Assembly (NCBI GenBank): GCA_964187785.1
Contig: OZ076409.1
Span: 47,742,001 to 47,806,000, forward strand
Length of the DNA stretch: 64,000 nucleotides
Origin: Amphiscolops sp. MND2022
Lineage: Eukaryota
Direction: 5' to 3'
Made by a program: the position numbers and the translations under genes. The number at the start of each line of letters is the position of its first letter. The stretch's first letter is position 1. Below the pieces are notes generated by a model that did no database searches, was not told the origin of the DNA, and saw only the letters and a list, made by a program, of their open reading frames with translations. Shown here piece by piece: positions 4,464-56,860 of the stretch.

Positions 4464-5260
4464 CTTGTTTCACGGTGATTTCAGTTAACAACCACGCTTA
4501 ACAACAAAGAAAGAACGAATGCAAAGATACGGCAGCCTCCAGTGGGTTGCTGTTGGGTTTGAATCACCGTTGGATGCAAATGAGGGGGGCCTCTGCAGAT
4601 TGGTTTGCAAGACTGGAATTAGCGTGAACAGACAGATAACAGTGTTTGGAGAGCTTTGACACAGTTTGAATTACTGTCGACTTGCAAATGTCGTGAGTGC
4701 TTCAACACACGTTGAGACAAGGTCGGCCAAGGCGGCAGGAAGAAAAGAGGTCAACAATTAGTCAAGAGTCGTCGCCAAAGATGCAACAATCATCGTCAAG
4801 GGGTACATGCCCTGTGAGCTAGAAAGCCGACAAACAAGCCATATTTGCCTGTATACAACTTCAAACGATCTTCGTACCATTATAACTTGATATTAACATG
4901 CAAGAGCAATTGAAACAAGACCAACTGATCAACAGATTTTGTTCATTAAACTTAATGGTTTCCTTAAATAAAGACCTGATTTGTTTTGTTATTATTAAAT
5001 AATGATAAAGTCTAGGTTTTACAGAGCAAAGCAAGTATTTCGTGGGCGGTTCTTTTACGCACCTAGAAACATATCTCATAGAAAAGACAGACAGAAGAAA
5101 TGTTTTTTGATATATATAATTTGCGAGAAAGTAAGATTGAAATTTACAGGATGCCGGCACAAATTGAAGTCAAATATGAATAAACTTTTAATTCAAAGGA
5201 CTGAGAAATCTGGAATGAAATATTGAACACAATGCAAAAATTGAATGATTCAATAAATAC

Positions 5261-34546: not shown

Positions 34547-34551
34547 ATTAC

Positions 34552-36303
34552 TGTCGCAGGCTGCCGCCTGTGATGGCACATTAATAACGACGTCGGCGGA
34601 AAATCAAGAAATCATCCCGGGTACCCTACCCACGTTTTAAACTTTCCCTTGCTGAAACTTATATTTATTTGTTAATCACATTCATTTTTGTTTATTCAAG
34701 TGCATTTTATATAAGTGTTCGTGATATTAGTCTGTTAAAATTACGATTTGGAACTATCCAAATCAGGTTGTGATTTGAGATGTGTAAAAGGAAGTTTGTT
34801 GTATTACAAATAGAGTGTTGAAATTAATCAAAGCGGTAACGTACAATAAGCAGGTTGATCGCGAGAAGGAAACGTGTTCAAGTAAGAAAACGTCCCTTCT
34901 CGGCGATGTAACTTTCAGTACAATTATTAGCCAATCAGAGCTCTCCTTTTGCTAATTATGAGTGCTTTATTTATGATGGCCGGATATGGCTAATTGACTA
35001 AGCGGTGCTAATTTATATCAGTCCCCCAGTCAAATGGACGGCTTCGGCCAATTCGAGCATAATGATACTTTGTTGCCTAATTGGATCAATACTTACGCGG
35101 AGTTATTAGAATCATGTTTTTAGTTTAAATAAATACGTTTGTGATGTTTTGATGTTTGTATACCTTTAACTTGGATAAAGGGACGGTTAAGGCCTTTTAC
35201 CATGTCTTTCATATGCGCAGTACATGTTATGGATTTGGGCCTATTCCGGCCCTGATATGCGAGTGTATTTTCGTGAATATCGATGCAGTATTAGGATTCC
35301 ACACATAGTAATACATTCCGTTTTCAGCTTTATTTGCAGTAAACTTGTGCCGGCACGTGCCTTCAATTTACATCACAATAAAATATGTAAGTTGTGGTAT
35401 TTGTTTACATCACACTTGAAGTAGGTCTAACCGACAAATTGTTTGAAGTTGCTACTTAAAATGATGACTCCGAATACCATTCCTAAAATGTCCCCCGGAA
35501 ATATGTAGTTGTCGGGGATTTTCCTATGATGATTGTAAAATCCTATGATTTGTCTTGATCAAAGTATGTAAAAAATGTGTGTGTCATCCTTTCAGGGGTA
35601 TAAATACCCATACCCCTGCAGGAAGACTCATACTTTGTACTTCTCCCCATTTGATAAAGACGTTCACAATACAAACGGTTTCACTGTTAATTTTCCGGAA
35701 TTGATAATTCTAGTCTTGAACCCGGTTCAGTCTTAATGCCTACTACAAGAAAGCAAAAGAAAGCAAGAAAATCTAGAGGATTAGAAATTCTCTCTGACAT
35801 TGAAAACCTTGACATAATGTTAGGTGAAAATCACTTCAATGATACGAGGAGAGACGAAAGTCTCGATGGAAATTCCATTAGAAGGCAAGAAAGTATTATA
35901 AGTAATAACTTGGAAAATGAGGAAATGGATCTCCATTCTGACCATAGAAATCTTGGAGTTGGGACTAGTACCGGGTACGACCGAAATTCAGCAAGTATAG
36001 ATTCTCAAGCTGATATCAATAAGTTGACGAGTGAATTGAACTCTAGAATATCTAGAGAAATGGATGTAATGATGGACAGTGTTAGTTCTCAGATTCAGAG
36101 AGCCATAAGTGACGCTATAAATAATCAGGTTTTGCCCCAAATTCAAAACGTCATTATGGCCGGTTCAGGACAGGAGACTAGAAGGGGATGGGAGAGATCT
36201 GACGAGAGACCGGAAAGTTATTCCGAAGTTCAGTACAACGCGAAAACTAGAACTACCCTCAATAATGAACACGGTGATAAACCACACCGTTATGTTCATG
36301 ACA
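34552..36303 (+). repeat. 5' LTR (1752 bp)
   Basis: TGTCGCAGG...TTCATGACA; matches 55052-56804 at roughly 98% by manual comparison. Confidence 0.95.
35593..35635 (+). promoter_or_regulatory. LTR core promoter (TATA box and Inr-like site)
   Basis: TATAAATA at 35599-35606 between inverted CAGGGGTA/TACCCCTG; TCATACT ~29 nt downstream; AGCCAATCAG CCAAT box at 34929. Confidence 0.6.
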
Positions 36304-37429
36304 TGGTGACAAGAGACAACGAATCTCCAAATCAAGTTCCTGAGTTTCTCACAGGACGAATCTCATCCAGAAATCACCTCGACAGGTCCTTTGAGGACAT
36401 CAACCTTGACACGACGATCCCAGCACAAGAGAGAATCACTACGGCTGCTGACTCTGACCCCAACACTCGACTGGCAGACGTCTTGACTACAATGCAGAAT
36501 AGACCGACAGCCCAACAACTTACCATACGCCCAGTCAACTCAAATACCATGACATTCGATGGCAAAAGCGAAAAATTCGAGCTGTTCGAAGACCTATTTC
36601 ACACTATGATCAAGATGCAGCCAGAAATGACTGAGCAAATGAAGATCAACCACCTCCACTCTTTATTGAGGAAGAATGCTCTTCAGACATTCAGAAATAT
36701 CAGCTCAAGCAACCGACAAACTCTAGAGGACGTATTAGTCATTTTTAGACGAAAATACGTCAAGCCCGAGTCACAGGCGACTGCCAAACATAAATGGCAC
36801 CGTCTGGTCTTCGATCCCAATACGATGAAACTGCCTGATTTTCTCGAAGAATTAAACCAGGGAGCCGAGAAGGCGTTTGGTGATCATGCGCAGAAAATGA
36901 TTGACAGCTTGCTTTATGCAAAACTGCCACCAAAACTGAAGCGGTCCGTCAACATGGCCAGATTAGAAAATGGCTCCTACGATGAGATAGTTGCTCATTT
37001 GGAGAGAGAATTAGAGCTTAACGCCCTCGAGGAGTCAGATGACCTACCAATGGCCACAATGACCTCCTCGACTACAAAATCTAAAACTCCTCTGTCAACT
37101 GGGCAAATGTCAGACATTACTTGCAATTACTGCAAGGCAAGGGCCACATGGTCAAGGACTGCGAAAAACTGAAAAAGAAAAAAGAAAAAGATGCCCAACA
37201 AAGCAAGTCGACGCTGAAGAAAACATATCCGGAGTGTGGCACTTGTGGGAAAAAGAACCACCCGGAGGAGAGATGTTGGCAAGGTGCTGGTGCACATCTT
37301 AAACCCAAGCGCACTAGACCTGAGGACTCAACTGACAAAAAGCCCAATCCCAAGGCTCAGAAACCTCAGACCAAACCGACATCATCGGGCTCCCAATCCT
37401 CATATTCTAATGATGAGTCAAAAAACTAA
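35736..37429 (+). CDS. gag: Gag with two CCHC knuckles; one 1-nt frameshift near 37137
   Basis: ORFs 35736-37172 and 37121-37429 join at CNYCK/GKGHMVKDC; second knuckle CGTCGKKNHPEERC; capsid-like TFDGKSEKFELFEDLF region. Confidence 0.88.
36304..36318 (+). promoter_or_regulatory. Putative primer-binding site
   Basis: TGGTGACAAGAG directly after the LTR-terminal CA; TGG pairs with tRNA CCA; cognate tRNA not identified. Confidence 0.6.
37420..37426 (+). promoter_or_regulatory. -1 ribosomal frameshift slippery site (gag-pol)
   Basis: A AAA AAC immediately before the gag TAA; the -1 frame is open from here into pol. Confidence 0.8.
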
Positions 37430-40400
37430 CTTCGCCACGACTCCAATATAACGAATTAATATCTGTCCGACAATACATCAGATCGGACCCTCCAATGCAG
37501 ACGTTCCACCAATACAATCAGCAATTGATGGGCTATCCCTCTGTTGTCTGGCAGCAGCAGATGGAAAAAGCTACCATCATCACCTTCAATAACACCCATT
37601 TGTTCCAGAAACCAATTCCTGTTTGGGACCCTGATTACACCACCACCTTCACTACCCGGTTCAGGCCCATTCCCCTGATCGATGATTACAATCCAACATA
37701 CATCGATCCAGACTACAACAGAGATCCCTACTGGGACACCGAGCTTTACAACCAAGATTCACTACAATTTCAATATGTCCTGGACGATATTGAACACTAT
37801 AATAGAACAGTCCACGAGAACCCTCCAATTACCCATAACAAGAAAACAAGAGCGCTAATTGAAAACTGGCAAATGAATGATGGCACAAACCATCCAGTGT
37901 TCCCAAACCCATTGGGGACCGAGACCCATGACAGCAATGCTGAACCCATACCACAATCATTGATAGACGAAAAACAGTTCCAAAATGTCTTAATCACTAG
38001 AGACGGTGAACCAGACTGTATACCCCTGTCAACCAACGTCAACCTCAAATGCAAAAAACGCATGTTGTATTTCCCAATGGACTTTGGGGAATTGACCATT
38101 GACGGACTCATTGACACTGGAGCGCTGTCCAGTGCAATTCCTGAAATGGACCTCCGGAAAATTCGACTTTTATCTCCACAATCCGTTATCCGGGAATGTC
38201 CGCCTCCGAACTTCCAAATCATGGTCGCTAATGGGCAACTGGAAACTCCTAAGAGTACCATAGAGCTCAAATTCGAAGTTGGTGACATTGAGTTCCATGA
38301 AATCTTCATAGTGATGGAACATCTGACAGGTCCGATCATTGGACTAATGTTCCTTCAAAGAAACCATACAGTTCTGGACATGAGACAAGGGATACTGAAT
38401 TTCCCGTTCTTTTCGATGCAGCTCAAAACGGCTGACCATAAATACTCAAATGTATTAGAACCAATTCTCAATCCTACTGAGATAACTATTCCGCCAAATG
38501 ATAAAGTCCTAATTAAGACCAATTCCCTACTCTACCCTGAGAATGCTGTCACTGGAATTCTGCAACCGAGCGACCTTCTACATGAAGAAGGCGACATCAC
38601 CTTTTGCCCAGCTTTGGTCACTCTGAATGATGGCAATATATTGATACCAGTGAACAATTTCACAGAACACCCCTATAAACTCAAAAAGGGACTACATATT
38701 GCCAATTTCTCCGTCATGACGCCAGAACAGATGAAGTATGTCAAACCGGTAGATCCGGCATCAACCTGGCACCTGTTGCAGAATGACCAGGAGCAAGCAG
38801 CCCATTACGTCAGCAGTCTCATCAAGACCAATAGAAATCCGCAAAACTCTGAAAATTATTGGTTCCCAACTCCAGAAAATCCTGGAAATCCGGAGGAACA
38901 CACACCTATACAAAAACGAATCCTACGCGAGTTACAGGCCCTACAGGACCTGGAGACACTCGACCCCACTACAGATGCAGAATCGCGTGCAAAATTCTTA
39001 GAAAACTTTGACTGGAAAGATTCCACACTTACTCCTGAAGAGAAGGAGAAAATTGAGGAATTGTTAGTGGAATTCCATGACATCTTTGCACGACACCGCT
39101 TTGATATAGGCATGAACGAGGTATTCAAGGTGAAACTGACGCCTAAGGACGATTCCCCAGCCTATAGTCAAAACCTTCCAGTTCCTATCAACTTGAAGGA
39201 GGACATCCTAGTCGAATTAGCCAGGTTACACAAATATGGCATAATAACCACACTGCCATTCTCGAAATATGCAAGTCCAATATTCGCACAAAAGAAGCCG
39301 AATGGGAAACTCCGACTCTTGGTTGACTTGAGAAAAATCAACAACCCCATCTCGGATGATTATATCAACAATAATCACCCCGTCAGTACACTAGTTGATG
39401 CTGCCCAACACTTGGCAGGCAAAAAACTGTTCTGTAAATTAGACTGCTCGCAGGCATACCACTGCCTACCAATGGCTGACCAACGTTCAATCGAAATGTT
39501 GGCTTTCAATTTTGCCAGTCGCACATTCGCTTACAGACGTTTGGCACAAGGCCTTAGTCGGTCACTATCCGCATTCTCGAGTTTTATTAGAGAATACCTT
39601 GACAAAGTCATTAAAGCGGATCAGTGTGCCCAGTATGTGGACGATATCGGCATTGCAGCCAATGATGTTGACCACCTCATGATGAACCTGAGAGCTACGT
39701 TCAAATGCATTCAGGAAGAAGGCCTTAAGTTAACAATGCACAAATGTCACTTCGGTGCAAAAGAAATTGATTTTCTCGGACGGACTATTACCCCACAAGG
39801 CGTCAAACCCCAGAAACAGAATGTGCACAACTTTCTGGAAAAGACTAAATTCTCGAAGTCGAAAAAGGCTTTACAGCGCTATTTGCGATTCCTAAACTAC
39901 TACAGGAATTATGTCCCAAGACTCTCCGAACGCCTTGCTCCATTCTACAAGATGCTCAAAAGTGACGAAAAGGTCCTAGTATCGAAAGAATTAGTCCAAC
40001 AATTCGAAGAAATCAATAGAGCACTAGACAAATGTTGCGACTTGGCCCTACAGCAACCCATTCCGAACAAGCAAATAGCACTAATGACTGATGCAAGTTT
40101 TGGTGCAGCCGGGTACGCGGTCCTAATCGAAGACGACCCAAGCCAGAAATTTACGTCACTCAGAAAAGCGTATGCACCAGTCGCTTATGGATCAAAAACT
40201 TTCACCCCAGCACAGATCAAAATGTCATATTATGCCAAATAATTCCTTGCAATTTATTTTGCATTCAAAGAATTCGGACATATTTTCTGGGGTGCGCCGA
40301 AACCGGTCATCATCCTTACAGACAACAAAGCTGTCACGAGATTTTTTCAAACAAAAATAATACCCCCAGCCCTGTGGAACGCGTGTGATTATGTCATTCA

Positions 40401-42633
40401 ATTCAATTTTGTCATAGCGCACATCCCGGGGGCACAAAATACCGCTGCTGACTATTTGTCCCGATTGGAAGCAGATCCGAAGGACAAATTGGTGATGAAA
40501 ATTCGCGAAGATGTACAAACACTACCAATCGAAATCAATGTCCAATCCGCAGGGGTGTCACAAGAAGAACAGATCTTCTACACCAATGACGACGATGAGA
40601 CAGAAGAACAGTATTGGGCAAGACAAGAAGCAATCAGAAAAAATCCAGCAACTGATGAGCCCACTGTTACTATACAAACTCTGTCAACAAATCTGGTCAA
40701 GCAACACCCCGATATACAAGTCCGATTGAGGAAGACGAACCAGATCATTATCGAGCAATCCAAAGATGCGGTACTAAAACAATTGAAAGCGAAACTGCTT
40801 CATGAAGAGTATTCAGAAAATCTACTGCACCAGGATGCCCGAAACAGACATTACGCAAACAATCTGGAACGAATTGTACATAAGGACGAAATCCCGACAA
40901 GGCAATACTTTGATGAAACAGGGAACGTTAAATACCATCAAATTCTGCTCCCGCAACATTTACTACAGGAATTGCTTCAGTCTCTTCACGGGACAGCGCA
41001 TAAACATCCTGGCATTTCGAAAAAGTTGCAGGAAATCCGACAAAGGTATTACTACCCTAGCATGGCTAAACACGTCAAAAAGTGGGTAGAAGGGTGCGAA
41101 CAATGTGCCAGAGACAAAAGAGTCCCTAACGCAACGATCACACCTGAACTGCTCAACTTGCCCGAATGGGACCTTGGACCTGAAGACGCCATGCAAATCG
41201 ACCTATTGCCGAACCTTCCGCCAAGTGGAGGATATGAAAATGTCCTAACGGCAATTGATGTATTCTCCAGATATTTGTTCGCCTATCCCCTTACGGACGC
41301 ATCAGCGATCAATGTAGCAAAAGCGCTCATTGACATTATGACTAAACACTCATATCTACCAACGACCCTTATCACTGATAAAGGTACTGCATTTACTTCT
41401 ACAATTATTGCGGAGGTTACGCAGATTTTGGGCATCACACTCAAATGCGCAACGACGAAACACCCGCAGACAATTGGGAAATTGGAGCGTACTCATGCCT
41501 CATTGAAAACAAATCTCAAAATGGCATGTGGAGAATATCGCCGCCAATGGCACAAATACTTGCCATTAGCAGTACTGAATCATAATACTAGTTATCACGC
41601 CAGCATCGGTTGTGAGCCAACGAGAATATTTCATGGAAGAAATCCAGTTAATATTTTGGATCACAAGCTTGGAAATAATCCAAGCGAGCAAATTAACCCC
41701 ACAACCGAATTTGCTGAAGAAATCCAAAACCGGACAAAAATCCTGATTGACAAAACGAAACAGAACATTATTCAGTCGTATATTAAGTACAAAGAATATT
41801 ATGACCGCAAAGCAAAAGCCGCTCCACTAAAGGAGAACGAATACTGTTTTGTCTTACAGCCGAAAGCGGATAATCAAGGATCAAAAATTCCATTCCGCGA
41901 TTACCGTTGGGTTGGACCATTTGTAGTCCAAAATGTTTTGCCAAATGAAAACTATATAGTACGACGGATCAATACGAACAAAACTCAAATTTTGCATCGC
42001 ATTCGTCTTAAGAAGTTTGTCCCCAATCAACCGCTTGAGGATAATTTCCTAGAACAACAGTTGCAGCCAGATGAAGAAATTGTCATTCCGCAAGATGATT
42101 TATATGTCATAACGTGGGAAACCGACTTTGGCGAGCAACTAGTTACACGAGGCAACGAGACTATTCCGACCAGCATGCCGAATGGCGAACAGCCTAATGC
42201 GCCAGAAGCGAATACAAATGACGTAGCCGGGAACGAAGCGGATTACATAACCACGAGTGACGAAACAAGTTACGCTGACCACGCGGCGCGAAGCCGGAAT
42301 GAAAGATTAAATCATGACGTCACAAAAAGGAATGAAGATAGTGAAGCGGCTAGCAATGACAAATCTCATTGGCCGAATCCGGCCGTTCACCCGAAAAATC
42401 AAGAAAAAACTTTGGCGAATACGGATGAAAGACCAAAAAATGACGAAATTCCCTCAGAAAGAAATTTGACGAATGAAAACGACGCACAAAATTCTCCAAA
42501 AAGGGGGGATGATATTATCGTGCCCGAAATATCTGAAAGCGATGCTAGAAATGAGAGTCTGAGCCCTAGAGGAGGGAAATATAATCTCAGACCTAACCCC
42601 AACCCAAACTACTCAGAAGACTACAGATACTAG
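37420..42633 (+). CDS. pol: Pol polyprotein (protease, dUTPase-like spacer, RT, RNase H, integrase); one premature stop at 40240-40242
   Basis: LIDTGA; LRLLVDLRKIN, KLDCSQAY, QYVDD; TDASF..AK*FLA..LTDNKA..AADYLSR; H-H-C-C, QIDLL, ITDKG, KLERTH, GPF; ORFs 37495-40242 and 40456-42633 are in the same frame. Confidence 0.95.
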
Positions 42634-42880
42634 AGAAAATTAAATTCGGTTCAGGAATTAGCCCTGAACTGTTCTGCTTTTTCTCTTTTATTCTCTTTTG
42701 TATCAGTCCCATACAGCAGTATCTTTTGAATAAATAATGGGACGTATGAAAAATCCCTCACAAAGGAAATAACCCGGGATCAAGAAATCAAAAGAAAGAA
42801 ATGTATATAAATAAGGCAACAAATGAAACAGAAAATAAACAAAGTTTACAGTCTTGGTGTACACGTATACATATGTACAA

Positions 42881-45800
42881 TTAGTCTTTAGTAACGCTAG
42901 ACTGAGGAGATACAGTAGCAGAAGAAGCAGAGGACCGAGACGCCCTGCGTTCCATCTTCCTTCGTTTCTTACTACTAGGGGCCTTTACAGCAGGATCATC
43001 AGCGACAGAACCAGCATCCCCGGAATCAATTTGGACAGAGATTCTCTCTGGAGTAGATGACGCAATGCGGCAGGAAGCCAACAAGGACTTGTAAGTTTTT
43101 GAGCGCCCAAAGGTGTCAACATATGTCCAGGGGTCATATTCTTCAGCAAAAGCGGAACGTCCAAAGGAAGAAGATAGAAGGGAAAAGCTAGCCAAGTTGT
43201 CATCATTACTACAGAAAGGCACGGAATCACGGACATTGGCAAGATAACTTTGGCAAGGGAGAATGACATCGGTGAAGCGATTCTGACAGTGGTAACTGTG
43301 CCAAACGTAACGTCAGGGAGGGCTAAACTCACAGAGGTTGCACATAGACAGCACAGCTTGAATAAGTGGAACAGGTGCGCCCGGTCCTGCAAGAACTCAA
43401 GTCCAACCAGGAACTCTATCAGATCTGAGGAGGTACTAGTCAGATCGAAATTGGGACCATAACTAGTCCGTAAGTGGTCCAGTAGCTGCATGTACTGGTC
43501 CCGGCACAGAGACTCATTGGCACTTGGGACCCAAGAACGGAGGGCAAAGGTGTTATACAGCATGTCAAAATGCTTCAGAGCAACGTCCATCGGCCTTTTA
43601 AACATGATGAATGGGTCGAAAGCAGCCAACCCTTTTGCTATGTTGCTTGTCAGCCCAACTCGTTTCAGGACCTCATTGATGAGGAACTGCACATACTGCT
43701 GGCTGTCCTTGACGAAGGCTGTTTTTACCGTCCCTGCGGTGGCCTGTATGGCTGGACGCTCAGACTTCTTTCCAAAGTGGATGCCCTCTGCTCGAGCCCT
43801 GCTAGCTGTCCCTACGCGATTAGACAATTTGAGCCTGACCAGGTATTCATCTTCAGGCAGGAATGTCCCTTCACTGGTCTGGAATCGGAGGAGCAAGAAC
43901 CAGGCATTCTCTAAGGGAACTGTGTCTGGAGTGTAGACCCGGGAACAGAGCAGGCTGACGAATCGACTGACTTCCCCGCAGAGATAGAATGAGGCGTCAC
44001 GCTTATACTGCAGATTCACAGCGAAACTGGTGACATCTAGAAACACAAAATAATGCCCAAATACGAAATGTAACCTAACACAACCTCCCCGCCGAAATAT
44101 ACTCACAGTCACTGACGAGCTTGCGGAAGAATTCCAGTTTGACGACAAAGAATTCGTCACAAATCAAGGACCATTCGAAGCTCTGCACCTGGAATGAAAG
44201 ATCACCCTTACTACGGCGCATAAAGTCCGAAGGACAAACAAGGACTAGGGAAACCCCTTATGAATAAGCCTGTCTAACTGGAATAAAACGTATGGCTCAA
44301 CAGAAAGCTAACCCTGTTGCGAGATCCTTGGCCTTCCTGCAGGGGAGCGTGTGCCGTCAGGTAGCGTAGCACTGACTTCCATTCATCTAACAATGCCTGG
44401 CAAAGAGTGGGCAAGGTTTTGACCTCGAGCTGACAGGTGGTGATAGCCTGTAAACCCACATGGCCAGATGAACTTTGAATATTAGATCCCGAGACTCGCT
44501 ACCCCCATCCCTTTTACCAATTAGGACCACAAAAGAAAGGAAATGTGCCATTGGTTTACTTACCCTAACGAGTTCCGGATGACGCATCACCCAATCTTCG
44601 ACAAGGGAACCACCCAGACTGACCATCAGGGCTTGCAACACCGAGAAGAAGTCTATGTGCCCAAACACGGAGTAGCTCGTCTTATGCATGAGTCTTGCCA
44701 GCGAAAGGTGCTCAAAACGGAAACAACTCTGGACTCCTTGGGTGAAGTACTCTGATTGGTCGATCGTTTTGGCGAATTCAACTGGGCACCCTGAGCATGC
44801 GACCATATCGGGCCGTGTGGAAACTGCTGACTGGAATCGAGCTAGTGACCCCAGTTCCCCAGTCACATCAGTCGCGGGAAGAGAACTTCGGCAGACGTAG
44901 ACCCTACAGAGCTCTAGCTGCTTCCAGTATTTGACTGACATGCATTGGTTGGAACCAATCGTCTCGAATTCGACTGGGAAGCACTGTTGAGTGGACACTT
45001 GCTCAGCGATGTCATGTAGTGCACAGATGAAGAAGTGCTGGAATATGGCCTGAAACGGAACCTAAACCTCAGTACAGGGTAAAGTTCGGAAGAAACATTG
45101 AGGCTTAAAAGACACTACTTACAGTGAGGCGTTCCTCCCCCCAATCGAAATCAGTCACCGTGGCTTGATGGTTGGTGAATGACCCCATCCGTGACCATAA
45201 GTTTCTCAATACCATCATGTCTCCTTGGGTTTTCGCAAAATCTCCCACGAGACAGAGTTGAGTTTTGGCTCTGGATTCTGCTGTGACCAGTGCTGTGGTG
45301 GAGCCCTTGATGTAGTCATCATAAAAGGGGAACCGTTCCCCGATGTCCACCAGTTCTTCATTGATGAAATGAGGAAGTGCCTTTGCCAGCTCCATTTTAC
45401 TCAAGATCTTCCCATTGGCTCCTCGGACTCTATGTTGCACCTTACCCGTGACAGGATCCGTGCTTCGCAGGTGCTCATACCGCCAACGCTGGTTGCGGCG
45501 TAAATGCCGTTGCGTGCGATGATGTCTAAGGATTTCATACGGGCCTTTCGATCTGATAGAAAAGTTCTTTTTACAAATGTGGCACCAGACCATCAAAGGA
45601 TTGTGGACAGGATCGGCAGGTCCTGAGATGAAAGATCTAGTCGAACCTATTTTTGAGAAGAACTCCTCTTTCATGGGACTCCCCGTCTTGAGGGCCTCCG
45701 GTCATTTTTTCCGTTTTTTGGGCCTGGAGGTGGTCCGTGCCGTGGTCCGAGTTTGCTCCCTCAGCTCCTGTAGGGTGGTGTCTTGACTGCTGAACTCTGA

Positions 45801-47277
45801 TGTGTCCGGCTCATTCTGCTGCTGACCAGAAGAAGGTTGGGCTTCGGTTGAAACTTGCAGTGGGGCAGCAGGTTTTTTGAAGGACCGATTTATTAGGTCC
45901 ATCTCTGTGGCACTGTCGCTCTCCTCATAATAAGATGACTCCCCAGTGCCCTCTGAAGATGAGTCAGGTTGGCGTGTAGTAGTTGCTGTTCCTTCTCCTT
46001 CGGATTCCGTCCCACTTGAATCGCTAGAAACTCTGCGCATGGGGGTCTGACAACGACCCTTGGAAAGGAAATGAGCAGTGCGGGAAGGAGCGACGGTGGG
46101 AGAACCCCGAACAGCGTCAATAACCATTCGCTCCATGGTAGAAAATGACCGGTTGAGCGTCTCATCAGTCATAACCCTGAGAAGGTGATATATTTGAGGC
46201 TCAGTGAAGGCAACGGTGGAATGCCCCACAGGAAGACGGATTGGGGCGGCTTCATCAAAATACTCCTTCAAAATTGCCCTACTCCGCCAGGAGAGGTCTG
46301 AAGGCCTACTTTGGGTAGGTTGTGCTCGGGGTGCAAAGTCCTTGCTTGTTCCAGGAATCAGCATCTCGGAACTTGTATCATCTCCGCCTTCAGTTCCCGA
46401 CTCAGGGTGAAAGGGGTTAAAGCCATACAAGGCAACAGGATTCACTTGGCTGACTTCATCGGCAGTTTTCTCCTCATCACTCTGTCCCCCTAGGAAGTGG
46501 ACATGAGGTGCCATTCCAGGCAGAGCGGGCACGTCACAGATTGATGAAGCATTCTCATCGTCCGTTCTGGAAGGAGCCCCGCTAATGTTGGCCATCTCAG
46601 GGTCAGTTCTGTCCCGCAACTCTGGTAGCTGAGACTCAGATGTCACGATAATTTGGAGTGCCGACTCTAAGGCTGACAAATCAGCTTGACAGGGCTCTTC
46701 ATCTTCCTCGGACATGATGGGGGTACTTGACCTCCGGACCGCGGGGTCATCGGATGTTGCCGGAGTAGCTTCAACGGTTGGAGGGATTTCGGCGTTCGTA
46801 CCAGAGGGCGAACCGCCCACTTGTTGTGGGGCAGATTCTTGGTGTCGTTCCATCTTCTGGACCATAGCTTCGGCATATGCAGTGACGTCAGTGCTGCTGC
46901 CCTGACTGTTGATGGGACTGTCTTTCTCAATAGTTGCTGGAGACAGGCCTGCATTGTCTACTTGAGGCCTTACAGGATCAGAAGATGAACCTTCTGGATT
47001 GGCATGGACACTGGCTTGGGACGTGGTTGGCTCGAGAGCATTCTTTTTCGGAAGATTTTCTAAACGAAAAGGAATGAAATTTAGCGGTGTACTTCCTTGA
47101 TATGAATCCATTTTACCGCGATTAGAAACCTTCCGGAAGTGTCTGACAAATTCGAATGAAACGTGTTATCACGTGTTTAGTGATGGAAACAGGAAGTGTA
47201 TTTTGAACAAATTTGACCCTGATCAAGTTAAATGAGTTCTAAAATGAAAATCCAAACCAACCTGAGTCAGAAGACAT
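42881..47277 (-). CDS. Antisense spliced accessory gene: disordered N-terminus, BED zinc finger, hAT-transposase-like body, ~1270 aa; two lesions in this copy
   Basis: Exons 47277-47262, 47059-45123, 45049-44564, 44447-44313, 44188-44107, 44036-42881; GT-AG introns of 202, 73, 116, 124 and 70 bp, all phase-compatible; VWCHICKKNFSI..EILRHHRTQRH; in-frame TGA at 45702-45704 and frameshift near 43288. Confidence 0.78.
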
Positions 47278-48174
47278 GTCGCTGGGGTTCTGATCTGCTA
47301 AACGCTGGTCCAAGCGGGAACGATTGCTGGAAACTGGGGAAATGGCCGGGTATGGCAAGAAAGGAAGAGATTATTCCGACGAAGAAAGAAATACAGCTAA
47401 GACGGGGATAAGAATGGGGTAAATGTTGATGAAGCAAATCCAAAGTGAAAGGAACAAATGAAATATAAATAGAATTGAAATGGAATTAAAATTGGGTAAA
47501 GAATTGAAGAAATTGGGAAGTTGGAGTTCGTGGCTGAAGATTATTACCAGACTAATATTATGGATTATCTACACATTTATTCTGTACATGGAGTCTGCCA
47601 GCGAAGTGTACAAAGGACTTTGTTATTTACAGCCTATTTAATTAAAAGCCAGTTATGGCCGTTTGCCCTGTTTTGTTTTGTTGTTTCGTCCAGTTGCCCT
47701 AGTTACCCTTAGTTAGAATTTTCGCCATCTTGGATTATCCAGATTTATTATTTTCGCCATTTTTGTTATTTAATTTTACAATTTATCGAAGCTTAACGCT
47801 GATTGGATGAATCCATTACGAGAAATTTTGGTGACGCGTGCCGCTAATTGCTTACAAGCGGTCCGTTAATTACCCACTTGAGACGGGTGTAGTTGATATT
47901 CGTAGGACGAGCGTCATTCACACCTCTTCTAGTGATGACACTGATAAGGGGTAAACATCAGGTTATCAAAGGGAGCCGCCTAATCATGGAATTCCATTCA
48001 GAAAAGTTTACGATGGATCGGGACGATTAACCTAAGGTTCTCCCGCCGAGCTGGAAAGTTCGGGAAAAGGCCTGATTCGGCTAAATTATTAAAACTGACA
48101 AATTCATTCTACTACAAACTCCTCTTCGATACAGTCACTACGAATAGCTTCAAAAATATAAAAAAAAGATAATC
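47278..48174. promoter_or_regulatory. Divergent intergenic region between the antisense gene and ORF3
   Basis: Two TTTTCGCCAT(C/T)TT motifs (47719, 47751), CTGATTGG at ~47800; CTGAC branch-like site (48095), pyrimidine tract and CAG (48134) upstream of the ORF3 ATG. Confidence 0.45.
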
Positions 48175-48960
48175 ATGAGCAAATACAACTTAGCTAGAAG
48201 ATTGTTCGAGCTGGAGGAATACGACTCAGATGATTCTGAAAGATCAGTAATATACATTTCCAGCAGTGAGGAAGAGTCATCAAACTGGGAAACCGACTGC
48301 TCCACAGACACGGAGCAGCTTATCGCAAGAATCGAAAGGGAGGTCACCTCCAGCCCCATGCTAATTGGGGGCCGCATAATGACTATGGAGGAACCTTTAG
48401 GAGACGAATCAGAAGCTGGCCCCAGTTCTTCCCAGATGCGAACAGATGTGACTCCGAAATTTGACCACAGGTACTTTGACCAGGAGATGTGTTATGCTCC
48501 CACAATGAAGTTGGGAAAGTCAAGGATAGAGGTTTGCAAGACTCTATTACCAGTGCCAGAGTCACCCATGTCACCGCCTGACCATGAGAGAGGGCCAAGT
48601 TTGGACACCCCCCTGATGCAGCCTACAATAGGTGGTTTTCACGCGTCGTTCCACGTACAGAACACAAGGCCGTACGAGGACGTGAGCAACAAACTGTATT
48701 CTGGTTGTATGGTGTGTGGCAGATCCTCAGAAGCAATAAAGAAAGAGAAAGTAGAATGGTATGTTGCAAGGTCCAAGCCACGAGGAGAGCCTGAGTACAT
48801 CACGAAAATCAGAATAGAAGCATACGAGAACGGTCTCAACGCCGGGGCATTCCTCTTCATAACACCCGCAGTGTCGCAGGCTGCCGCCTGTGATGGCACA
48901 TTAAAAACGACGTCGGCAGAAAATCAAGAAATCATCCCGGGTACCCTACCCACGTTTTAA
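48175..48960 (+). CDS. Retrotransposon accessory ORF3, 261 aa, unknown function, copy 1
   Basis: Intact ATG-TAA ORF in env position, ending inside LTR sequence; acidic Ser-rich N-terminus, CMVC motif; no signal peptide or transmembrane helix seen. Confidence 0.75.
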   Translation: MSKYNLARRLFELEEYDSDDSERSVIYISSSEEESSNWETDCSTDTEQLIARIEREVTSSPMLIGGRIMTMEEPLGDESEAGPSSSQMRTDVTPKFDHRYFDQEMCYAPTMKLGKSRIEVCKTLLPVPESPMSPPDHERGPSLDTPLMQPTIGGFHASFHVQNTRPYEDVSNKLYSGCMVCGRSSEAIKKEKVEWYVARSKPRGEPEYITKIRIEAYENGLNAGAFLFITPAVSQAAACDGTLKTTSAENQEIIPGTLPTF

Positions 48961-49719
48961 ACTTTCCCTTGCTGAAACTTATATTTATTTGTTAATCACA
49001 TCCATTTTTGTTTATTCAAGTGCATTTTATATAAGTGTTCGTGATATTAGTCTGTTAAAATTACGATTTGGAACTATCCAAATCAGGTTGTGATTTGAGA
49101 TGTGTAAAAGGACGTTTGTTGTATTACAAATAGAGTGTTGAAATTAATCAAAGCGGTAACGTACAATAAGCAGGTTGATCGCGAGAAGGAAACGTGTTCC
49201 AGTAAGAAAACGTCCCTTCTCGGCGATGTAACTTTCAGTACAATTATTAGCCAATCAGAGCTCTCCTTTTGCTAATTATGAGTGCTTTATTTATGATGGC
49301 CGGATATGGCTAATTGACTAAGCGGTGCTAATTTATATCAGTCCCCCAGTCAAATGGACGGCTTCGGCCAATTCGAGCATAATGATACCTTTGTTGCCTA
49401 ATTGGACCAATACTTACGCGGAGTTATTAGAATCATGTTTTTAGTTTAAATAAATACGTTTGTGATGTTTTGATGTTTGTATACCTTTAACTTGGATAAA
49501 GGGACGGTTAAGGCCTTTTACCATGTCTTTCATATGCGCAGTACATGTTATGGATTTGGGCCTATTCCGGCCCTGATATGCGAGTGTATTTTCATGAATA
49601 TCGATGCAGTATTAGGATTCCACACATAGTAATACATTCCGTTTTCAGCTTTATTTGCAGTAACTCCTCTTCGATACAGTCACTACGAATAGCTTCAAAA
49701 ATATAAAAAAAAGATAATC

Positions 49720-50505
49720 ATGAGCAAATACAACTTAGCTAGAAGATTGTTCGAGCTGGAGGAATACGACTCAGATGATTCTGAAAGATCAGTAATATAC
49801 ATTTCCAGCAGTGAGGAAGAGTCATCAGACTGGGAAACCGACTGCTCCACAGACACGGAGCAGCTTATCGCAAGAATCGAAAGGGAGGTCACCTCCAGCC
49901 CCATGCTAATTGGGGGCCGCATAATGACTATGGAGGAACCTTTAGGAGACGAATCAGAAGCTGGCCCCAGTTCTTCCCAGATGCGAACAGATGTGACTCC
50001 GAAATTTGACCACAGGTACTTTGACCAGGAGATGTGTTATGCTCCCACAATGAAGTTGGGAAAGTCAAGGATAGAGGTTTGCAAGACTCTATTACCAGTG
50101 CCAGAGTCACCCATGTCACCGCCTGACCATGAGAGAGGGCCAAGTTTGGACACCCCCCTGATGCAGCCTACAATAGGTGGTTTTCACGCGTCGTTCCACG
50201 TACAGAACACAAGGCCGTACGAGGACGTGAGCAACAAACTGTATTCTGGTTGTATGGTGTGTGGCAGATCCTCAGAAGCAATAAAGAAAGAGAAAGTAGA
50301 ATGGTATGTTGCAAGGTCCAAGCCACGAGGAGAGCCTGAGTACATCACGAAAATCAGAATAGAAGCATACGAGAACGGTCTCAACGCCGGGGCATTCCTC
50401 TTCATAACACCCGCAGTGTCGCAGGCTGCCGCCTGTGATGGCACATTAAAAACGACGTCGGCAGAAAATCAAGAAATCATCCCGGGTACCCTACCCACGT
50501 TTTAA
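49720..50505 (+). CDS. Accessory ORF3, copy 2
   Basis: Same protein as copy 1 except N>D in SSDWE. Confidence 0.72.
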   Translation: MSKYNLARRLFELEEYDSDDSERSVIYISSSEEESSDWETDCSTDTEQLIARIEREVTSSPMLIGGRIMTMEEPLGDESEAGPSSSQMRTDVTPKFDHRYFDQEMCYAPTMKLGKSRIEVCKTLLPVPESPMSPPDHERGPSLDTPLMQPTIGGFHASFHVQNTRPYEDVSNKLYSGCMVCGRSSEAIKKEKVEWYVARSKPRGEPEYITKIRIEAYENGLNAGAFLFITPAVSQAAACDGTLKTTSAENQEIIPGTLPTF

Positions 50506-51264
50506 ACTTTCCCTTGCTGAAACTTATATTTATTTGTTAATCACATCCATTTTTGTTTATTCAAGTGCATTTTATATAAGTGTTCGTGATATTAGTCTGT
50601 TAAAATTACGATTTGGAACTATCCAAATCAGGTTGTGATTTGAGATGTGTAAAAGGACGTTTGTTGTATTACAAATAGAGTGTTGAAATTAATCAAAGCG
50701 GTAACGTACAATAAGCAGGTTGATCGCGAGAAGGAAACGTGTTCCAGTAAGAAAACGTCCCTTCTCGGCGATGTAACTTTCAGTACAATTATTAGCCAAT
50801 CAGAGCTCTCCTTTTGCTAATTATGAGTGCTTTATTTATGATGGCCGGATATGGCTAATTGACTAAGCGGTGCTAATTTATATCAGTCCCCCAGTCAAAT
50901 GGACGGCTTCGGCCAATTCGAGCATAATGATACCTTTGTTGCCTAATTGGACCAATACTTACGCGGAGTTATTAGAATCATGTTTTTAGTTTAAATAAAT
51001 ACGTTTGTGATGTTTTGATGTTTGTATACCTTTAACTTGGATAAAGGGACGGTTAAGGCCTTTTACCATGTCTTTCATATGCGCAGTACATGTTATGGAT
51101 TTGGGCCTATTCCGGCCCTGATATGCGAGTGTATTTTCATGAATATCGATGCAGTATTAGGATTCCACACATAGTAATACATTCCGTTTTCAGCTTTATT
51201 TGCAGTAACTCCTCTTCGATACAGTCACTACGAATAGCTTCAAAAATATAAAAAAAAGATAATC

Positions 51265-52050
51265 ATGAGCAAATACAACTTAGCTAGAAGATTGTTCGAG
51301 CTGGAGGAATACGACTCAGATGATTCTGAAAGATCAGTAATATACATTTCCAGCAGTGAGGAAGAGTCATCAGACTGGGAAACCGACTGCTCCACAGACA
51401 CGGAGCAGCTTATCGCAAGAATCGAAAGGGAGGTCACCTCCAGCCCCATGCTAATTGGGGGCCGCATAATGACTATGGAGGAACCTTTAGGAGACGAATC
51501 AGAAGCTGGCCCCAGTTCTTCCCAGATGCGAACAGATGTGACTCCGAAATTTGACCACAGGTACTTTGACCAGGAGATGTGTTATGCTCCCACAATGAAG
51601 TTGGGAAAGTCAAGGATAGAGGTTTGCAAGACTCTATTACCAGTGTCAGAGTCACCCATGTCACCGCCTGACCATGAGAGAGGGCCAAGTTTGGACACCC
51701 CCCTGATGCAGCCTACAATAGGTGGTTTTCACGCGTCGTTCCACGTACAGAACACAAGGCCGTACGAGGACGTGAGCAACAAACTGTATTCTGGTTGTAT
51801 GGTGTGTGGCAGATCCTCAGAAGCAATAAAGAAAGAGAAAGTAGAATGGTATGTTGCAAGGTCCAAGCCACGAGGAGAGCCTGAGTACATCACGAAAATC
51901 AGAATAGAAGCATACGAGAACGGTCTCAACGCCGGGGCATTCCTCTTCATAACACCCGCAGTGTCGCAGGCTGCCGCCTGTGATGGCACATTAAAAACGA
52001 CGTCGGCAGAAAATCAAGAAATCATCCCGGGTACCCTACCCACGTTTTAA
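51265..52050 (+). CDS. Accessory ORF3, copy 3
   Basis: As copy 2 with P>S (PVSES). Confidence 0.72.
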   Translation: MSKYNLARRLFELEEYDSDDSERSVIYISSSEEESSDWETDCSTDTEQLIARIEREVTSSPMLIGGRIMTMEEPLGDESEAGPSSSQMRTDVTPKFDHRYFDQEMCYAPTMKLGKSRIEVCKTLLPVSESPMSPPDHERGPSLDTPLMQPTIGGFHASFHVQNTRPYEDVSNKLYSGCMVCGRSSEAIKKEKVEWYVARSKPRGEPEYITKIRIEAYENGLNAGAFLFITPAVSQAAACDGTLKTTSAENQEIIPGTLPTF

Positions 52051-52809
52051 ACTTTCCCTTGCTGAAACTTATATTTATTTGTTAATCACATCCATTTTTG
52101 TTTATTCAAGTGCATTTTATATAAGTGTTCGTGATATTAGTCTGTTAAAATTACGATTTGGAACTATCCAAATCAGGTTGTGATTTGAGATGTGTAAAAG
52201 GACGTTTGTTGTATTACAAATAGAGTGTTGAAATTAATCAAAGCGGTAACGTACAATAAGCAGGTTGATCGCGAGAAGGAAACGTGTTCCAGTAAGAAAA
52301 CGTCCCTTCTCGGCGATGTAACTTTCAGTACAATTATTAGCCAATCAGAGCTCTCCTTTTGCTAATTATGAGTGCTTTATTTATGATGGCCGGATATGGC
52401 TAATTGACTAAGCGGTGCTAATTTATATCAGTCCCCCAGTCAAATGGACGGCTTCGGCCAATTCGAGCATAATGATACCTTTGTTGCCTAATTGGACCAA
52501 TACTTACGCGGAGTTATTAGAATCATGTTTTTAGTTTAAATAAATACGTTTGTGATGTTTTGATGTTTGTATACCTTTAACTTGGATAAAGGGACGGTTA
52601 AGGCCTTTTACCATGTCTTTCATATGCGCAGTACATGTTATGGATTTGGGCCTATTCCGGCCCTGATATGCGAGTGTATTTTCATGAATATCGATGCAGT
52701 ATTAGGATTCCACACATAGTAATACATTCCGTTTTCAGCTTTATTTGCAGTAACTCCTCTTCGATACAGTCACTACGAATAGCTTCAAAAATATAAAAAA
52801 AAGATAATC

Positions 52810-53595
52810 ATGAGCAAATACAACTTAGCTAGAAGATTGTTCGAGCTGGAGGAATACGACTCAGATGATTCTGAAAGATCAGTAATATACATTTCCAGCA
52901 GTGAGGAAGAGTCATCAGACTGGGAAACCGACTGCTCCACAGACACGGAGCAGCTTATCGCAAGAATCGAAAGGGAGGTCACCTCCAGCCCCATGCTAAT
53001 TGGGGGCCGCATAATGACTATGGAGGAACCTTTAGGAGACGAATCAGAAGCTGGCCCCAGTTCTTCCCAGATGCGAACAGATGTGACTCCGAAATTTGAC
53101 CACAGGTACTTTGACCAGGAGATGTGTTATGCTCCCACAATGAAGTTGGGAAAGTCAAGGATAGAGGTTTGCAAGACTCTATTACCAGTGCCAGAGTCAC
53201 CCATGTCACCGCCTGACCATGAGAGAGGGCCAAGTTTGGACACCCCCCTGATGCAGCCTACAATAGGTGGTTTTCACGCGTCGTTCCACGTACAGAACAC
53301 AAGGCCGTACGAGGACGTGAGCAACAAACTGTATTCTGGTTGTATGGTGTGTGGCAGATCCTCAGAAGCAATAAAGAAAGAGAAAGTAGAATGGTATGTT
53401 GCAAGGTCCAAGCCACGAGGAGAGCCTGAGTACATCACGAAAATCAGAATAGAAGCATACGAGAACGGTCTCAACGCCGGGGCATTCCTCTTCATAACAC
53501 CCGCAGTGTCGCAGGCTGCCGCCTGTGATGGCACATTAAAAACGACGTCGGCAGAAAATCAAGAAATCATCCCGGGTACCCTACCCACGTTTTAA
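52810..53595 (+). CDS. Accessory ORF3, copy 4
   Basis: Same protein as copy 2. Confidence 0.72.
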   Translation: MSKYNLARRLFELEEYDSDDSERSVIYISSSEEESSDWETDCSTDTEQLIARIEREVTSSPMLIGGRIMTMEEPLGDESEAGPSSSQMRTDVTPKFDHRYFDQEMCYAPTMKLGKSRIEVCKTLLPVPESPMSPPDHERGPSLDTPLMQPTIGGFHASFHVQNTRPYEDVSNKLYSGCMVCGRSSEAIKKEKVEWYVARSKPRGEPEYITKIRIEAYENGLNAGAFLFITPAVSQAAACDGTLKTTSAENQEIIPGTLPTF

Positions 53596-54354
53596 ACTTT
53601 CCCTTGCTGAAACTTATATTTATTTGTTAATCACATCCATTTTTGTTTATTCAAGTGCATTTTATATAAGTGTTCGTGATATTAGTCTGTTAAAATTACG
53701 ATTTGGAACTATCCAAATCAGGTTGTGATTTGAGATGTGTAAAAGGACGTTTGTTGTATTACAAATAGAGTGTTGAAATTAATCAAAGCGGTAACGTACA
53801 ATAAGCAGGTTGATCGCGAGAAGGAAACGTGTTCCAGTAAGAAAACGTCCCTTCTCGGCGATGTAACTTTCAGTACAATTATTAGCCAATCAGAGCTCTC
53901 CTTTTGCTAATTATGAGTGCTTTATTTATGATGGCCGGATATGGCTAATTGACTAAGCGGTGCTAATTTATATCAGTCCCCCAGTCAAATGGACGGCTTC
54001 GGCCAATTCGAGCATAATGATACCTTTGTTGCCTAATTGGACCAATACTTACGCGGAGTTATTAGAATCATGTTTTTAGTTTAAATAAATACGTTTGTGA
54101 TGTTTTGATGTTTGTATACCTTTAACTTGGATAAAGGGACGGTTAAGGCCTTTTACCATGTCTTTCATATGCGCAGTACATGTTATGGATTTGGGCCTAT
54201 TCCGGCCCTGATATGCGAGTGTATTTTCATGAATATCGATGCAGTATTAGGATTCCACACATAGTAATACATTCCGTTTTCAGCTTTATTTGCAGTAACT
54301 CCTCTTCGATACAGTCACTACGAATAGCTTCAAAAATATAAAAAAAAGATAATC

Positions 54355-55140
54355 ATGAGCAAATACAACTTAGCTAGAAGATTGTTCGAGCTGGAGGAAT
54401 ACGACTCAGATGATTCTGAAAGATCAGTAATATACATTTCCAGCAGTGAGGAAGAGTCATCAGACTGGGAAACCGACTGCTCCACAGACACGGAGCAGCT
54501 TATCGCAAGAATCGAAAGGGAGGTCACCTCCAGCCCCATGCTAATTGGGGGCCGCATAATGACTATGGAGGAACCTTTAGGAGACGAATCAGAAGCTGGC
54601 CCCAGTTCTTCCCAGATGCGAACAGATGTGACTCCGAAATTTGACCACAGGTACTTTGACCAGGAGATGTGTTATGCTCCCACAATGAAGTTGGGAAAGT
54701 CAAGGATAGAGGTTTGCAAGACTCTATTACCAGTGTCAGAGTCACCCATGTCACCGCCTGACCATGAGAGAGGGCCAAGTTTGGACACCCCCCTGATGCA
54801 GCCTACAATAGGTGGTTTTCACGCGTCGTTCCACGTACAGAACACAAGGCCGTACGAGGACGTGAGCAACAAACTGTATTCTGGTTGTATGGTGTGTGGC
54901 AGATCCTCAGAAGCAATAAAGAAAGAGAAAGTAGAATGGTATGTTGCAAGGTCCAAGCCACGAGGAGAGCCTGAGTACATCACGAAAATCAGAATAGAAG
55001 CATACGAGAACGGTCTCAACGCCGGGGCATTCCTCTTCATAACACCCGCAGTGTCGCAGGCTGCCGCCTGTGATGGCACATTAAAAACGACGTCGGCAGA
55101 AAATCAAGAAATCATCCCGGGTACCCTACCCACGTTTTAA
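54355..55140 (+). CDS. Accessory ORF3, copy 5 (runs into the complete 3' LTR)
   Basis: Same protein as copy 3; last 89 nt lie within the 3' LTR. Confidence 0.72.
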   Translation: MSKYNLARRLFELEEYDSDDSERSVIYISSSEEESSDWETDCSTDTEQLIARIEREVTSSPMLIGGRIMTMEEPLGDESEAGPSSSQMRTDVTPKFDHRYFDQEMCYAPTMKLGKSRIEVCKTLLPVSESPMSPPDHERGPSLDTPLMQPTIGGFHASFHVQNTRPYEDVSNKLYSGCMVCGRSSEAIKKEKVEWYVARSKPRGEPEYITKIRIEAYENGLNAGAFLFITPAVSQAAACDGTLKTTSAENQEIIPGTLPTF

Positions 55141-56804
55141 ACTTTCCCTTGCTGAAACTTATATTTATTTGTTAATCACATCCATTTTTGTTTATTCAAG
55201 TGCATTTTATATAAGTGTTCGTGATATTAGTCTGTTAAAATTACGATTTGGAACTATCCAAATCAGGTTGTGATTTGAGATGTGTAAAAGGACGTTTGTT
55301 GTATTACAAATAGAGTGTTGAAATTAATCAAAGCGGTAACGTACAATAAGCAGGTTGATCGCGAGAAGGAAACGTGTTCCAGTAAGAAAACGTCCCTTCT
55401 CGGCGATGTAACTTTCAGTACAATTATTAGCCAATCAGAGCTCTCCTTTTGCTAATTATGAGTGCTTTATTTATGATGGCCGGATATGGCTAATTGACTA
55501 AGCGGTGCTAATTTATATCAGTCCCCCAGTCAAATGGACGGCTTCGGCCAATTCGAGCATAATGATACCTTTGTTGCCTAATTGGACCAATACTTACGCG
55601 GAGTTATTAGAATCATGTTTTTAGTTTAAATAAATACGTTTGTGATGTTTTGATGTTTGTATACCTTTAACTTGGATAAAGGGAGGGTTAAGGCCTTTTA
55701 CCATGTCTTTCATATGCGCAGTACATGTTATGGATTTGGGCCTATTCCGGCCCTGATATGCGAGTGTATTTTCATGAATATCGATGCAGTATTAGGATTC
55801 CACACATAGTAATACATTCCGTTTTCAGCTTTATTTGCAGTAAACTTGTGCCGGCACGTGCCTTCGTTTTACATCACAATAAAATATGTAAGTTGTGGTA
55901 TTTGTTTACATCACACTTGAAGTAGGTCTAACCGACAAATTGTTTGAAGTTGCTACTTAAAATGATGACTCCGAATACCATTCCTAAAATGTCCCCCGGA
56001 AATATGTAGTTGTCGGGGATTTTCCTATGATGATTGTAAAATCCTATGATTTGTCTTGATCAAAGTATGTAAAAATTGTGTGTGTCATCCTTTCAGGGGT
56101 ATAAATACCCATACCCCTGCAGGAAGACTCATACTGTGTACTTCTCCCCATTTGATAAAGACGTTCATAATGCAAACGGTTTCACTGTTAATTTTCCGGA
56201 ATTGATAATTCAAGTCTTCAACCCGGTTCAGTCTTAATGCCTACTACAAGAAAGCAAAAGAAAGCAAGGAAAACTAGACGATTAGAAATTCTCTCTGACA
56301 TTGAAAACCTTGACATAATGTTGGGTGAAAATCACTTCAATGACACGAGGAGAGACGAAAGTTTCGATGGAACTTCCATTAGAAGGCAAGAAAGTATTAT
56401 AAGTAATAACTTGGAAAATGAGGAAATGGATTTCCATTCTGACCATAAAAATCTTGGAGTTGGGACTAGTACCGGGTACGACCGAAATTCAGCAAGTATA
56501 GATTCTCAAGCTGAGATCAATAAGTTGTCGAGTGAATTGAACTCTAGAATATCTAGAGAAATGGATGTAATGAGGGACAGTGTTAGTTCTCAGATTCAGA
56601 GAGCCATGAGTGACGCCATAAATAATCAGGTTTTGCCCCAGATTCAAAACGTCATTATGGCCGGTTCAGGACAGGAGACTGGAAGGGGATGGGAGAGATC
56701 TGACGAGAGACCGGAAAGTTATTCCGAAGTTCAGTACAACGCGAAAACTAGAACTACCCTCAATAATGAACACGGTGATAAACCACACCGTAATGTTCAT
56801 GACA
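55052..56804 (+). repeat. 3' LTR (1753 bp)
   Basis: TGTCGCAGG...TTCATGACA followed by ATTAC. Confidence 0.95.
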
Positions 56805-56860
56805 ATTACCAATCAAGCCCATTATCTCGTACTACTTATTCTTTTACCAGATGTGATTAA
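56237..56860 (+). other. LTR-encoded copy of the Gag N-terminus reading into flanking DNA (207 aa)
   Basis: First ~189 aa nearly identical to the 35736 ORF; diverges exactly at the LTR end. Confidence 0.8.

Follow-up and report, generated by a model that had tools for sequence, protein, structure and literature searches.

The window analysed here, a 64,000-nucleotide stretch of the genome of Amphiscolops sp. MND2022 (GCA_964187785.1, contig OZ076409.1, positions 47,742,001 to 47,806,000), contains a Ty3/Gypsy long terminal repeat (LTR) retrotransposon of 22 kb, and in the interval from pol to the 3' LTR of this element sits an intron-containing antisense gene, referred to here as the cargo. 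The cargo very likely originated from a transposase of the hAT5/hAT6 type that lost catalysis. The best explanation as a whole, which we regard as probable, is a conserved, antisense, intron-containing accessory gene of a Ty3/Gypsy lineage with hAT5/hAT6 descent and a predicted regulatory role.

Architecture of the cargo gene

The first-pass annotation had placed a catalytically dead hAT-type transposase at 43290..45674 and quoted several peptide blocks from it. All of these blocks are present on the minus strand, and the span is real but forms part of a larger gene running from 47111 to 42881, with the following features (D1, D2 and E3 are the positions matching the first, second and third catalytic residues of a DDE transposase):

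42881..47111, minus strand: cargo gene, five exons, about 1280 codons, ATG at 47111 and stop at 42881, antisense to the element
45123..47111, minus strand: exon 1, with an S/T/E/P-rich region of ~470 residues, a KKRK basic motif, a C2H2 finger and a region resembling the hAT dimerisation domain (putative placement)
45705..45722, minus strand: basic motif PKKRKK, followed by a stop in the window copy only
45504..45587, minus strand: zinc finger C-x2-C-x16-H-x5-H, with W preceding the first Cys
44564..45049, minus strand: exon 2, predicted RNase H-like core region with the D1-, D2- and CxxH-matching positions
44954-44983, minus strand: D1 block CFPVEFETIG
44783-44806, minus strand: D2 block MVACSGCP
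44708-44731, minus strand: CxxH-matching block
44313..44447, minus strand: exon 3, matching the RW motif region of transposases, with the motif lost (register set by eye)
44107..44188, minus strand: exon 4
44108-44143, minus strand: VKLEFFRKLVSD, joined across the intron to VTSFAVNLQ at 44008-44034
42881..44036, minus strand: exon 5, a part predicted as all-helical and resembling the insertion domain, plus the C-terminal part; catalytic Glu not conserved; frameshift near 43287 in the window copy
43327-43374, minus strand: LFHLFKLCCLCATSVS
43300-43374, minus strand: E3 block

The five-exon model was predicted from the genomic sequence and from comparison of copies. Among close copies (28 of 30 loci, two being excluded as partial or duplicated), each of the eight splice borders conforms to GT-AG in 27-28 of 28, and in 20 diverged copies 74 of the 79 measured introns are GT-AG. 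Intron sets vary by lineage: L133 is without introns 2 and 4, L129 without intron 3, and L123 and L131 without intron 4. Since single introns are missing exactly at the predicted borders, these lineages confirm the gene model independently, and such exact loss suggests recombination with a spliced antisense RNA. The distant copy L206 apparently shares introns 1, 3 and 4. A one-exon clade (L189-L198) holds the whole core in a single frame of 781-838 codons. A gap of ~1 kb (47111-48175) separates the start of the cargo from a divergent small open reading frame (ORF).

Probable descent from a hAT5/hAT6-like transposase

The same genome carries a DDE transposon family with terminal inverted repeats (TIRs), whose target-site duplications (TSDs) measure 5 bp in 9 of 12 copies and 6 bp in the other 3, and whose motif residues are Asp in 11 of 13, Asp in 6 of 7 and Glu in 16 of 19 rows. 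The name hAT5/hAT6 for this donor-like family is provisional, being based on TSD length and motif order; the group is defined by 5-bp/6-bp TSDs within the lineage containing Blackjack (PMC12730594, partial text). One member gave a sub-threshold match to PF05699. The family is young (L172-L183, L201, L202), and each of the 12 copies with both ends mapped is short (~0.75-1.95 kb), apparently through internal deletion.

The C-terminal half of the donor-family transposase, used as a genome-wide query, retrieved cargo ORFs at E-values of 5e-5 to 9e-3, and all 13 matches fetched proved to be cargo. Profile-profile comparison of the donor family with the cargo, with no cargo rows in the transposase profile, scored 50.1 (probability 83%) against at most 20.4 for reversed and block-shuffled controls, and further comparisons scored 30.8, 32.1 and 27.8 (controls at most 17.2, 20.3 and 24.5, respectively). 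An initial comparison with the C-terminal half of the donor had given 97%, but the transposase profile then contained a cargo row that raised the value, and the cleaned comparison supersedes it. The above-control matches occur in both halves of the protein and are collinear, leading from the finger to the first strand and then through the helical domain. ESM Atlas leads pointed to hAT families from two separate cargo regions, those from exon 2 (0.81-0.86) being hAT families with an RNase-H-like fold. Together, the genome-wide retrieval and the above-control scores uphold the hAT-type origin proposed in the first-pass annotation and narrow it to the hAT5/hAT6-like group.

Across 30 copies both Cys ligands and the first His of the zinc finger are invariant (30/30), and the last His is present in 29. 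This N-terminal C2H2 finger lies at the BED position and aligns with the C-x2-C-x17-H-x5-H finger of the donor family. The earlier label of BED-type finger was right as to a conserved C2H2 finger, but Pfam zf-BED did not match it in the run on the window exons, and its resemblance is to the donor finger. The KKRK core of the basic motif was found in 20 of 26 readable copies; the PKKRKK reported before is present in the window, but PKKRKK followed by a stop is specific to that broken copy (1/26).

Absence of a conserved catalytic triad

The D1 register was taken from alignments, and the registers of D2, CxxH/RW and E3 were set by eye from motif spacing. In the window, D1 lands on the second Glu of FPVEFE; across 36 copies it is Glu in 30, Ala in 4 and Val in 2, and in a one-exon copy it is Gln. 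By alignment, the window clade has an altered residue here that remains acidic (Glu). D2 falls, according to the register, on the Ser or the Gly of VACSGCP (Ser 32, Thr 3 and Leu 1, or Gly in all 36). The CxxH and RW motifs have described roles in hAT transposases (PMC4763223, partial text); in the cargo the His of CxxH is replaced by Phe in 36 of 36 copies, and the RW positions hold D/E/N and V/I/L/M in 40 of 40, in a register anchored on one alignment match. One candidate position for E3 carries Asp in 22 of 41 genome copies, but the wider alignment has Asp there in only 15 of its 103 rows; in the predicted structure of exon 5 the position lies in a loop.

A conserved D-D-E triad was absent in every register tried, and no pair among the 25 longest of 49 inverted-repeat pairs at 42600-48200 brackets the cargo, in agreement with the earlier report of missing TIRs. 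The accompanying claim that the acidic catalytic residues are replaced stands for the triad as a conserved unit but has to be corrected for D1. Judged from its sequence, the cargo is a transposase derivative without a conserved catalytic site, and not an active hAT transposon.

Retention, selection and reassortment in the retrotransposon lineage

The genome was searched at the DNA level (43 matches from the best 40 of 1718 candidates scored) and at the protein level (best 122 of 7442 candidates scored). All 53 relatives found through the cargo are located directly behind pol in antisense, 20 of them at 72-90% identity, 20 at 29-69% (exon 5) and 13 at ~22%. Because these relatives had been found through the cargo itself, a second sample was chosen by integrase only, with 20 copies taken at even steps from 150 integrase matches. 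All 20 hold some cargo; 17 keep the finger, exon 2 and exon 5, and three are deleted or rearranged. These counts, with the selection described below, substantiate the retention of the gene by the retrotransposon lineage, which is part of the domestication proposed earlier.

Median pairwise ratios of nonsynonymous to synonymous substitution (dN/dS) in the cargo were 0.025 for the finger part (18 pairs), 0.059 for exon 2 (17 pairs) and 0.037 for exon 5 (28 pairs), whereas the pol references gave 0.039 for reverse transcriptase (RT; 302 pairs) and 0.030 for integrase (240 pairs). Exon 3 (0.199, 96 pairs) and the N-terminus (0.176, 32 pairs) gave higher medians. All these values come from pairs with dS of 0.2-1.5 only, and the pairs are non-independent. 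They place the main core exons under purifying selection comparable to that on RT.

Cargo and pol have exchanged partners. Nine copies have an RT dS of 0.10-0.22 from the window and a saturated exon-5 dS, and exon-5 alleles that are 53-73% identical sit on integrase cores that are 96-99% identical. Among 11 representatives, exon 5 shows no correlation with the integrase tail (rho 0.02). Near-identical pol sequences with very different cargo alleles were seen in L065-L077, L135 and L245-L264, with reassortment peaking at the pol/cargo boundary.

A quick RT tree (37 rows) sets each of the two types, near-spliced and one-exon, apart as one side of a branch with 99% support; one old capture would give this picture, though the tree is no proof of it. 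Its root rests on one very long branch, and it leaves intron gain versus loss without polarity. By profile comparison the one-exon lineage ties to the window exons at 97-99%. The database relative P0093 has its best match in this genome at just 29-31% identity, and the gene family is probably present in another genome as well.

A predicted nuclear regulator and the alternatives

With Grande gene23 and Retand TRP28 as analogues, we tentatively prefer a nuclear zinc-finger factor that binds DNA or chromatin and promotes transcription of its own element, with an integration tether as the next candidate. A hAT5-like transposon would have inserted once, in antisense, behind pol of the ancestor of the lineage, and would then have lost its TIRs and catalytic residues. 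Introns may have been retained because antisense introns stay unspliced in the genomic RNA during reverse transcription. The cargo may have its own promoter in the 1-kb gap at 47111-48175, common to the divergent small ORF. The protein would enter the nucleus via its basic motif and bind DNA or chromatin via the finger on a transposase scaffold, and its long, acidic, low-complexity S/T/E/P-rich N-terminus would recruit cofactors, as expected of an activator or an anti-silencing factor. The finger ligands, being nearly invariant, were counted for this predicted function. In Hermes, a finger comes ahead of the core together with an intertwined dimerisation domain (PMC10368747, partial text). A version of this model with family-specific LTR binding is disfavoured by the finger, which does not track LTR sequence. 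An apparent co-variation of finger and LTR (rho 0.78) did not survive for the finger proper when near-identical copies were merged, and plain linkage would account for it. More tentatively still, we suggest that a hAT5-type transposase was tamed once, long ago, by the retrotransposon and became a disarmed, exchangeable nuclear factor with many alleles, on which the success of the element in this genome depends.

A cargo of the same origin that serves as an integration co-factor, anchoring the pre-integration complex on host chromatin or on some conserved target, is an unlikely alternative to this regulator. The finger is nearly unchanged among elements with LTR identity as low as 52%, in keeping with a constant host target, and the retention of the cargo in 17 of 20 integrase-chosen copies fits as well. 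However, a tight partner of integrase should co-segregate with it, and the free reassortment of cargo and integrase tail, together with the nine copies of low RT dS and saturated exon-5 dS, argues otherwise.

Less likely again is a decoy or weapon of the same origin, which would poison active hAT5 transposases through mixed oligomers or titrate a host silencing factor, without acting on the DNA of the element itself. Selection on the whole transposase scaffold, beyond the finger, would be in keeping with such a role, and the divergent exon-5 alleles on almost identical integrase cores resemble the outcome of an arms race. Yet the cargo is only ~20-30% identical to present hAT5-like transposases, which is low for mixed oligomers, the end-to-end-mapped hAT5-like copies are all short and apparently internally deleted, and pairwise dN/dS, used without a site-level test, detected no positive selection.

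We consider it improbable to a still greater degree that the hAT resemblance reflects chance or convergence and that the cargo is some other kind of host gene that was captured, although several results do count against hAT descent. The exon-2 core alone gave no significant profile match, with a degenerate global hidden Markov model alignment and pairwise z of at most 1.3; Pfam runs on the window exons, 135 relatives and the one-exon ORF returned nothing over the curated cut-off; and Foldseek, a tool proposed in the first-pass annotation, found no informative match for the predicted exon-5 model, also in a second look. A PDB sequence search produced no match to the cargo, and a single-sequence fold of the cargo (pLDDT 36) was discarded. 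Among other searches, cargo profiles did not exceed controls when compared with 961 ORFs taken from 50 loci that have canonical hAT matches, nor when compared with a ZMYM1-like hAT profile of 117 proteins. There was no match in a genome search with PF14291 and one back-translated motif, no longer relative of exon 5 among 6065 candidates of a word-indexed search, and no confirmed case among 223 pattern matches of a metagenome scan. Against chance stand the genome-wide retrieval of the cargo by a DDE transposase query, the collinear above-control matches in both halves and the ESM leads to hAT.

An ordinary nested DNA transposon, active or recently so, can be dismissed: Glu at D1 in 30 of 36 copies and Asp at one E3 candidate in 22 of 41 would suit it, but no TIR pair among the 25 longest inverted repeats brackets the gene, all 53 relatives share position and orientation, neither D2 register holds an acidic residue, and CxxH and RW are absent.

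The carrier element

The carrier combines TG...CA LTRs, a primer-binding site (PBS), the domain order protease, RT, RNase H and integrase, and a short TSD, as expected of a Ty3/Gypsy LTR retrotransposon:

34552..36303, plus strand: 5' LTR, with TG...CA ends, a PBS-like TGG after it and the left TSD ATTAC at 34547-34551
35736..37429, plus strand: gag, starting within the LTR, frame-shifted in the window copy, DUF1759 match at E 1.8e-6
37417..42633, plus strand: pol, with protease, RT, RNase H and integrase in Ty3/Gypsy order and an in-frame stop at 40240-40242 in the window copy
48175..48960, plus strand: small sense ORF of 261 codons, divergent from the cargo gene, with its end in the LTR start
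48117..55845, plus strand: tandem repeat of five 1545-bp units, each the small ORF plus the first part of the LTR, with 0-3 base differences
55052..56804, plus strand: 3' LTR, with the right TSD ATTAC at 56805-56809

The two LTRs are the same at 1719 of 1752 aligned bases (98.1%), and the 5-bp TSD ATTAC is exact on both flanks. The ends of 10 other copies agree with those of the window element, with an exact 5-bp TSD in seven, one mismatch in two and one not assessable. The window copy is decayed, with the gag frameshift, the pol stop and copy-specific cargo indels near 45710/45676 and near 43287.

The gag frame starts in the 1.75-kb LTR, which places the PBS inside the ORF and leaves ~200 gag codons (window 35736-36303) in the 3' LTR. 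The 261-codon sense ORF has no Pfam match and is present in most near-clade copies. The 1545-bp unit is single in all nine other copies mapped there, and the five units of the window represent a recent tandem amplification or an assembly artefact. In the close copy L231-L232 another LTR element, with 919-bp repeats, is nested in cargo exon 1. Elsewhere the window contains a 1395-codon frame ending in hnRNP Q acidic and RRM domains (9473-13660, minus strand), a short-chain dehydrogenase frame (3666-4469, minus strand) and a second RT frame (26266-28194, plus strand).

Comparison with known systems

None of the entries listed in searches of the open-access literature describes a hAT-derived antisense gene in an LTR retrotransposon, and the passages covered of a giant-transposon review (PMC6431247) mention no such gene. 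Sunflower Athila, also a Gypsy element, has an extra ORF labelled Transposase_32 (PF20167), in which nuclear signals accompany the transposase-named domain; unlike the cargo, this ORF is denoted ORF(+), and its match to the domain is partial and related to Athila ORF1. The available part of the source (PMC11728184) shows no DNA-transposon donor for it.

Host-domesticated hAT genes (ZBED1-6, Buster/ZBED5; FAM200/GTF2IRD2/ZMYM1-like) resemble the cargo in being hAT-derived and immobile as DNA transposons, with a finger and scaffold under purifying selection. The parallel with ZBED genes drawn in the first-pass annotation is apt for hAT domestication but loose beyond it: the ZBEDs conserve the DDE triad (PMC3606216, partial text), which the cargo does not, and the cargo finger has no zf-BED match. 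Moreover, the owner of the cargo is a multi-copy retrotransposon and not a single host locus, all 53 relatives being in Gypsy elements. If true, the apparent owner of this domesticated transposase is a mobile element and not the host, a class II enzyme having been taken by a class I element. The copies also provide a natural allele series (~22-99% identical, with varied intron sets) for asking why a dead transposase scaffold is kept.

With hAT5/hAT6 transposons the cargo shares the C2H2 finger and sequence similarity to the family with 5-6-bp TSDs; the order of parts predicted behind the finger (helical linker, putative RNase H-like core, candidate helical insertion, C-terminal part) would match as well. 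It differs in having no TIRs, no TSD of its own and no conserved DDE, CxxH or RW, in its added long N-terminus and introns, and in moving only inside an LTR retrotransposon.

Antisense ORFs between pol and the 3' LTR (aORF-3R) include Retand TRP28 (PF04195), maize Grande gene23 and those of rice RIRE2 and Boty; the plant proteins encoded there either are nuclear or have predicted DNA binding, and reviews state that the origin and function of aORF-3R are unknown and find no similarity to known transposable elements that would point to nested insertion (PMC7264820, PMC11963269, both partial texts). The cargo agrees with them in position, orientation, near-universal presence, pol-like conservation and a proposed nuclear regulatory role. 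Those ORFs are plant or fungal, whereas the cargo is predicted to be spliced, has ~1280 codons and belongs to an animal-type Gypsy lineage; Pfam runs on the cargo gave no match to Transposase_28, the family of Retand TRP28 (PF04195). The cargo thus appears as a variant of the antisense accessory ORF with a traceable type of DNA-transposon donor, which makes a nested-insertion origin of such ORFs directly testable.
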